This document shows positions 1 through 287 of a stretch of DNA of 287 nt, piece by piece. Position 1 is the first letter of the stretch, and each line of letters starts with the position of its first letter. The notes under the pieces are model-generated. The model made no database searches and had not been told where the DNA came from. It worked only from the letters and a program-made list of their open reading frames with translations. This DNA is from Escherichia coli (lineage in GTDB: Bacteria > Pseudomonadota > Gammaproteobacteria > Enterobacterales > Enterobacteriaceae), in the NCBI RefSeq assembly GCF_003334335.1, contig NZ_QOWQ01000225.1; one strand, 5' to 3'. The translations under genes were made by a program, and so were the position numbers.

Positions 1-287
1 GCCCCTTCAATGACTCTGTCCACCACATTTCCCCGGTGCGGAACACGCACTTCCCCCAGAGACTGACCACAGACGCATCCGTTCTGGCAGACGAACCTGA
101 AGTAACCCGGCAGCATCTGGTAGCTGGAGGTACCGTCATGAGAGTTGAGCAGAATAATTTCAGGGACATGTTCTCCGTTTATCTCTCCGGCCCGCCGCAG
201 ACGCAGCATGTGTTTTGTGTATCCCCGGCGGCCCGGGTCGCGCACACGGGTCTGGCAGGCGAAGAATGGCTGAAAGCCTTCCCGCTG
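1..287 (-). CDS. Internal fragment of a DUF932/UPF0380-family protein (YafZ/YfjQ-like, prophage/integrative-element associated); partial at both ends
   Basis: Seen in sequence: the complement frame with codons aligned to forward 285-287 is open for 95 codons (forward 3-287, plus 2 leftover bases at 1-2); the other two minus-strand frames each contain stops (TAA and TGA). Leucine codons are 5 CTG and 1 CTC, and TTA/CTA/TCA are absent. Translation: QREGFQPFFACQTRVRDPGRRGYTKHMLRLRRAGEINGEHVPEIILLNSHDGTSSYQMLPGYFRFVCQNGCVCGQSLGEVRVPHRGNVVDRVIEG. Established knowledge / recall: the segments EIILLNSHDG..SYQMLPGYFRFVCQNGCVCGQSLGEVRVPHRGNVVDRVIEG match my memory of UPF0380/DUF932 proteins (E. coli YafZ, YfjQ). 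No database search was run, so the family assignment is a recollection. No start or stop codon of the gene lies in the window. Confidence 0.7.

Follow-up and report, generated by a model that had tools for sequence, protein, structure and literature searches.

A long open frame antisense to a DUF932 gene of an Escherichia coli genomic island is very probably a by-product of codon usage

Introduction

Opposite a protein-coding gene runs a frame with the same codon boundaries (frame -1). Of all alternative frames it is the likeliest to contain long open reading frames (ORFs), and codon usage has been given as the main reason (Mir et al. 2012, PMC3454372, citing Merino 1994 and Silke 1997). In this class of long ORFs, highly expressed genes predominate (Mir et al., PMC3454372). 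Negative selection is generally absent on long antiparallel ORFs, and gene finders occasionally miscall such frames, an example being the “glutamate dehydrogenase” family PF10712, antisense to dnaK (Moshensky and Alexeevski, bioRxiv 10.1101/724807).

Antisense overlapping genes have also been described in E. coli, in EHEC (PMC9927249, PMC4683798, bioRxiv 10.1101/2020.11.18.388249) and, with aatS, in ETEC (PMC7457138). The evidence behind them consists of RNA-seq, ribosome profiling, mapped promoters or ribosome-binding sites, and phenotypes.

Here we analyzed a stretch of 287 nucleotides from E. coli (hereafter the window), which lies inside a gene of the DUF932 / TIGR03299 “phage/plasmid-like protein” family and is open on both strands. 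In E. coli K-12 the family is represented by yafZ in the cryptic prophage CP4-6 and by yfjQ in CP4-57. A literature search returned nothing on the function of DUF932, and no relevant publication dealing with DUF932 together with antisense.

The window has in common with frame -1 shadow ORFs (Merino et al. 1994 and Silke 1997, via PMC3454372; 10.1101/724807) the exact codon register and antisense stops that come only from sense TTA, CTA and TCA. It also shares with them a length that follows from the rarity of these codons, a strongly constrained sense frame opposite an antisense frame without negative selection, and occasional miscalls by gene finders. Nothing essential sets it apart from this class. 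With the EHEC and ETEC genes it shares an ORF antisense to an annotated gene in a horizontally acquired region. Unlike theirs, the evidence for its antisense frame is the sequence, in which a consensus scan found no promoter-like site and the evolutionary tests no sign of constraint.

Results

Two open frames in the same register

The initial annotation had described plus frame 3 as open over 95 codons and in register with the coding frame on the minus strand, and had named the lack of TTA, CTA and TCA among the sense codons as the direct cause. Six-frame translation and stop counts per frame bore out the first statement, and a count over the 95 sense codons the second. Zero stops were found both in plus frame 3 (window 3–287, codons 3–5 to 285–287) and in minus frame 1 (codons 287–285 to 5–3); the remaining four frames had 5, 4, 1 and 3. 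The two open frames have identical triplet boundaries and are therefore exactly in register. TTA, CTA and TCA do not occur among the 95 sense codons, and this is why plus frame 3 is open. The six leucines of the sense frame are encoded by CTG (five) and CTC (one), and its four serines by TCT (two), TCC (one) and AGC (one).

An ATG of the antisense frame at window 138–140, plus strand, opens a 103-codon ORF that ends at a TAG at window 447–449. This ORF is the version sometimes emitted by automatic gene callers. Further in-frame antisense starts inside the window are GTG 36, ATG 168 and GTG 210.

The sense gene and its island

Minus frame 1 is a real coding frame, that of an E. coli DUF932 gene in a CP4-type genomic island. 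The whole window (1–287, minus strand) is an internal fragment of a gene for a YfjQ/YafZ-like DUF932 domain protein of 272 aa, as seen from Pfam, RefSeq CDS identity, PHROG and dN/dS. Positions 287–3 encode residues 57–151 of this protein, and bases 1–2 are part of codon 152. The minus-strand translation matched Pfam DUF932 (PF06067) with E = 1.5e-29 over residues 2–95 (model positions 27–118 of 227), and the full protein matched PHROG phrog_12094 with E = 4.7e-128. Against TIGR03299 the window fragment reached 18 bits only, the cutoff being 110.7. In many E. coli genomes, an annotated RefSeq CDS (the DUF932 domain-containing protein WP_001234620.1) contains the window with 100% identity. Of 5,426 complete E. 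coli genomes, 4,455 had a match to the window, and the median copy number in a genome was 3. A count of all E. coli copies came to roughly 12,700, in 4,472 genomes.

The exact allele of the window is carried by E. coli E2865 (NZ_AP018808.1; locus L001). There the gene occupies positions 3637–4455 on the minus strand, codes for 272 aa and contains the window at 4001–4287. Its neighbors are genes for DUF905, an antirestriction protein, RadC, YeeT, a YeeU-type antitoxin and the CbtA toxin, and the gene layout is that of CP4-6 and CP4-57. The K-12 genes yafZ and yfjQ equal the window’s gene in length and island neighborhood. The window’s gene is a member of a separate allele group of E. coli and E. 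albertii, in which CTG makes up 82–87% of the leucine codons and each gene has 1–3 antisense-stop codons. In yafZ and yfjQ, unlike in this group, CTG accounts for 13–14 of the 29 and 28 leucine codons, and there are 4–5 antisense-stop codons.

Some island variants (L082–L085, positions 156–401, minus strand) carry, after the DUF932 gene and on the same strand, an 81-aa hypothetical gene that overlaps the DUF932 stop by 1 nt. L001 does not have it, and there the antirestriction gene comes next after DUF932, across a 54-nt gap (L001 3583–3636). “Hypothetical protein” annotations overlapping E. coli matches (H32, H37, H38 and H48) were considered as antisense genes and rejected, as they are the same-strand 81-aa genes with the 1-nt overlap. 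Further along L001, at 4867–7784, an IS66-family element (tnpA, tnpB and ISEc22 transposase, 5297–7632) lies between two IrmA-family gene fragments (4867–5217 and 7671–7784). The opposite end of the island carries an IS110 pseudogene together with DUF957 and DUF5983 genes that are truncated.

Extent of the antisense frame

In L001 no stop interrupts the in-register plus frame over 229 codons, from L001 3760 to 4446 (window -240 to 446), and the window holds the middle 95 of them. The flanking stops are a TGA upstream, opposite the sense TCA of codon 233, and a TAG downstream, opposite the sense CTA of codon 3. This TCA and this CTA are the 2 antisense-stop codons (TTA/CTA/TCA) of the whole L001 DUF932 gene. 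CTG encodes 83% of the leucines in the window’s allele. The six leucine and four serine codons, together with this CTG share, are the reason that the window has no antisense stop and the gene only two. The first ATG of the antisense frame is at L001 3871, leaving 192 codons.

Termination of the antisense frame just outside the window had been named in the initial annotation as a finding that would speak against a genuine gene. It was not seen. The frame runs for 229 codons here and for up to 316 in sister alleles: the nine E. coli alleles studied had it open over 229–316 codons, and among the eight sister alleles retrieved from E. coli, seven had 276–316.

A frame of this extent might be a young antisense overlapping gene, restricted to the clade and created by overprinting, for example as the ORF of 192 codons from L001 3871 or that of 103 codons from window ATG 138. 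Such a gene would be akin to the antisense genes described in EHEC. All 10 E. coli / E. albertii alleles first sampled have the frame open over 229–316 codons at a sense dS of up to 0.43, a weak GGTGA motif precedes the ATG at L001 3871 by 7 nt, and there are reports of antisense ORF translation in E. coli (bioRxiv 10.1101/2020.11.18.388249, PMC9927249). On the evidence given in the following sections, we nevertheless regard an overprinted gene as very improbable.

Chance expectation

We redrew the codons of the gene with the protein fixed, taking synonymous codons from four usage tables: island neighbors, 77 homologues, 3 K-12 core genes and general E. coli. Across the four tables, the probability of no antisense stop in the window’s 95 codons was 0.16–0.35, a range explained by the presence of only six leucine and four serine codons in this stretch. 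An antisense run of at least 229 codons had a probability of 0.012–0.086 per gene.

As a K-12 reference sample, we used 42 annotated genes from a 50-kb region, with 14,790 codons and 10,871 windows of 95 codons. TTA, CTA and TCA together made up 1.95% of these codons. The in-register antisense frame was open in 3,716 of the 10,871 windows (34%), and runs of at least 225 codons occurred in 8 of the 42 genes, the longest being that of aceE with 803. The open frame of the window does not exceed chance expectation. A length of 229 codons is still common for an in-register antisense frame, because almost a fifth of the K-12 genes (8/42) have runs about as long or longer. The codon-usage reading has to accommodate the lengths of the whole frames, 229 codons here and 276–316 in sister alleles, at a redraw probability of ~0.01–0.09 per gene.

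Conservation among homologues and close alleles

We compared the gene with 124 further homologous genes. Of these, 80 were from one-genome-per-species contigs and 34 from viral contigs, and the other 10 were E. coli alleles, among them K-12 yafZ and yfjQ. The homologues from the genome collection had a median of ~7 antisense stops per gene. The stretch equivalent to the window was open in 17 of 18 genes with at least 90% aa identity, in the single gene at 80–90% it was closed (0/1), and at 60–80% it was open in 9 of 103 (9%). The K-12 genes yafZ and yfjQ contain 5 and 4 antisense stops, respectively. The antisense frame is thus not conserved in homologues, the second finding that the initial annotation had set against a genuine gene. 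A frame broken in yafZ, in yfjQ and in ~91% of the homologues at 60–80% identity also argues against overprinting.

Among close alleles the frame is open with variable borders. Its upstream stop lies at four different places among the E. coli / E. albertii alleles with at least 91% aa identity, and the E. albertii allele has the codon-3 antisense stop only. The first antisense start varies by allele, being either a GTG or an ATG at three positions, and none is common to all alleles. In 18 close alleles (at least 91% aa identity) and one at 89%, internal antisense stops were found at sense codons 19, 24, 53, 109, 115, 178 and 233; codons 109 and 115, sites of stops in other alleles, fall within the window’s stretch. 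The TTA at sense codon 19 of L090 removes 16 C-terminal codons from the antisense frame, and the TCA at codon 233 of the window’s own allele leaves it with 86 N-terminal antisense codons fewer than L082. Stops at seven positions in close alleles, with both ORF ends and the first start differing among alleles, are difficult to reconcile with an overprinted gene.

Two IMG/VR contigs (L124 and L125; matches at 601–1416 and 601–1401) carry distant DUF932 homologues with 55% and 46% aa identity and a GC3 of 0.91 and 0.69, respectively. Neither has TTA, CTA or TCA, and their in-register antisense frames are open over 304 and 484 codons. These are independent occurrences of the same shadow frame in other lineages.

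Two contigs assigned to other bacteria had Enterobacteriaceae-type DUF932 genes. The first, from a “Bacillota bacterium” MAG (L003, JAEWTL010000095.1), had 94% aa identity to the E. coli protein, and the second, from “Chryseobacterium sp. 18061” (L068, CACSKA010000023.1), had 72%. Contamination or mis-binning is the probable source of both.

Selection on the two frames

In 45 pairs within the clade, the sense frame had a dN/dS of 0.125 and a dS of 0.06–0.43, so that synonymous sites in the clade are not frozen. For the same pairs the apparent dN/dS of the antisense frame was ~2.0, and mean aa identity was 83% for the antisense translation versus 94% for the sense protein. In a simulation that began with L001 and applied selection to the sense frame alone (omega 0.125, kappa 2), the antisense dN/dS was ~1.6, and antisense identity was 84% at a dS of 0.24. 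The observed values match those of the simulation, and therefore the antisense frame evolves as an unconstrained shadow. A lack of excess synonymous constraint was the third finding that the initial annotation had held against a genuine gene, and it is what these values show. An antisense dN/dS that matches a simulation without antisense constraint also weighs against overprinting.

Static leucine codons in the clade

In the E. coli / E. albertii clade, the antisense frame has persisted beyond the unbiased-mutation prediction. Codons 4–232 were kept open in 12 of 17 sister alleles, and the unbiased-mutation simulation gives this a probability of ~0.1–0.5 per allele. The frame persists above the simulation because the leucine codons are unusually static. 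Among the 17 clade alleles, 4 of 20 leucine columns varied versus 41 of 65 four-fold columns (Fisher p = 0.0009). At equal dS, changes of CTG cells were 4–8 times rarer here than in other family clades. The CTG share of leucine in the clade, 82–87%, is the family’s highest (family median 52%, maximum 72%); the high-CTG clade is one lineage, so this counts as a single event.

Regional heterogeneity of dS was rejected as the cause of the stasis, since in a local control 2 of 20 leucine columns varied versus 9.8 expected from neighboring four-fold sites. Stop avoidance was also rejected. All synonymous changes of leucine are depleted, with a deficit that is equally marked for CTT, CTC and TTG variants and for CTA and TTA. 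At the 17 CTG-majority leucine columns, the only variants in the 17 alleles were the stop-creating CTA or TTA, at codons 19, 53 and 115, and no CTT, CTC or TTG variants were found there. The leucine stasis is probably due to the extreme CTG share of the clade combined with a general preference for CTG.

Glutamine showed a similar pattern. Over L001 3637–4455 and the alleles L002, L082–L085 and L088–L091, the CAG codons (12 columns) were invariant and the CTG codons (17 columns) nearly so, and other four-fold sites varied freely. With CAG, CTG, TTG and TCG set aside, 15 of 35 other NNG-majority columns had an NNA variant among the clade alleles. The near-invariance of CTG and CAG in the clade is likely due to codon preference.

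The persistence above the simulation and the static leucine codons count against a codon-usage by-product and in favor of an overprinted gene. Yet the variants that do occur at the CTG columns are precisely the stop-creating ones, a point against an overprinted gene. The case can be narrowed to a very young overprinted gene, present in the E. coli / E. albertii allele group only and likeliest in the form of the 103-codon ORF from window ATG 138, with the CTG stasis as a first trace of selection keeping the frame open. We consider this narrower version slightly less probable still than overprinting in general.

The same codons could be frozen because the nucleotide sequence itself is under selection, for example as a regulatory antisense RNA or as an RNA or DNA element with a structure; this would fix CTG and CAG and remove antisense stops incidentally. 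The nearly invariant CTG (17 columns) and the fully invariant CAG (12 columns) next to freely varying four-fold sites would fit such an element. Synonymous sites are however generally unconstrained, with a dS of up to 0.43 and variation in 41 of 65 four-fold columns, and the frozen codons are scattered rather than clustered. The CAG share is 81–100% in the top 25 family members listed, and therefore looks like an ordinary codon preference. There was also no Rfam match (E up to 1) and no promoter-like site on either strand. Selection of this kind is hardly a plausible explanation of the open frame, and we place it at the level of the very young gene.

Search for signs of an antisense gene

The antisense translation had no family match in Pfam, PHROG or NCBIfam. 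Against 1.84 billion representative proteins it gave 101 matches, mostly short fragments of varied length. Many of them begin at query residue 127, which is window ATG 138, for example P0002 with 103 aa. The nine matching protein sequences that we inspected, of the 101, look like shadow-ORF or read-through calls. One predicted “protein” among the matches, P0005, has 55% identity to the antisense frame and a strong excess of F, Y, I and V, as though the reads behind it had undergone C-to-T (bisulfite-like) conversion or other damage. In a search of 5.8 billion proteins we found 10 matches, none with more than 45% query coverage and each on 1–13 contigs. Most of these had an unrelated Pfam domain or name, e.g., IS21 transposase, and no full-length antisense gene call was found among the 5.8 billion.

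One RefSeq protein of 311 aa, WP_077874033.1, bears the name “DUF932 domain-containing protein”, and its residues 121–311 align to antisense-embedded ORFs of a DUF932 gene of EHEC EDL933 (NZ_CP008957.1 1138084–1138848; Zehentner et al., bioRxiv 10.1101/2020.11.18.388249, Table S12). It therefore looks like a wrong-strand (shadow ORF) annotation, with a length near that of the 315–316-codon antisense frame of L082 and L084.

A consensus scan of L001 3300–4800 detected no sigma-70-like promoter on either strand, though weak or alternative promoters can escape such scans. The same region had three terminator-like hairpins versus 1.5 expected from shuffles. One of them, followed by a T-run, is at L001 4327–4342 on the plus strand (window 327–342), just outside the window and inside the antisense frame; it is probably there by chance.

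For EDL933, expression of antisense ORFs has been surveyed (bioRxiv 10.1101/2020.11.18.388249). The antisense ORFs of one of its DUF932 copies, at 1138084–1138395 and 1138420–1138848, are in the table of BLAST matches (S12) only and absent from the lists of 864 transcribed (S4) and 216 translated ORFs (S6); as these refer to limited conditions and to an allele that differs from the window’s, the absence is weak negative evidence. From this absence in one EHEC data set and from the lack of a promoter-like site, we infer that the antisense frame is not expressed. The position of the EDL933 ORFs outside both lists, together with the missing promoter-like site, protein family and full-length gene call, is further evidence against an overprinted gene.

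Discussion

Together, these results make it almost certain that the open antisense frame is a codon-usage by-product, a passive shadow of the codon usage and amino-acid composition of the sense gene; it would be an ordinary feature and not a second gene. This was also the reading preferred in the initial annotation, and it was strengthened by our analysis. Of the three findings listed there as speaking against a genuine gene, the lack of conservation and the lack of excess constraint were made, and early termination of the frame was not.

The plus frame can gain a stop only where the sense gene uses TTA or CTA for leucine or TCA for serine. Few leucine (6) and serine (4) codons in the window, and a gene with 83% of its leucines as CTG, leave no antisense stop in the window and two in the whole gene. 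The resulting open frame would be neither transcribed and translated as a gene nor maintained by selection.

The locus has the properties of a frame -1 shadow ORF: codon boundaries shared with the sense gene, a length explained by codon scarcity, no purifying selection, and no conservation beyond close relatives. Of those of a functional antisense gene, it lacks conservation of the ORF with its start and stop across homologues beyond the codon-usage expectation, and it shows neither purifying selection on the antisense frame nor reduced synonymous variation in the sense gene.

The codons CGG, CGA and AGG for arginine, and GGA and GGG for glycine, are rare in E. coli. The window’s island gene uses many of them, whereas highly expressed genes dominate the class described by Mir et al. 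The cause of its open antisense frame lies in the few leucine and serine codons and the 83% share of CTG, rather than in overall codon optimization.

Were the antisense frame a gene after all, it would have arisen de novo within a gene of a mobile island. As it stands, the locus is a clean worked example of how a long stop-free antisense frame in register with a coding frame is weak evidence for an overlapping gene, as this frame is likewise open in one of three such windows taken from ordinary E. coli genes.
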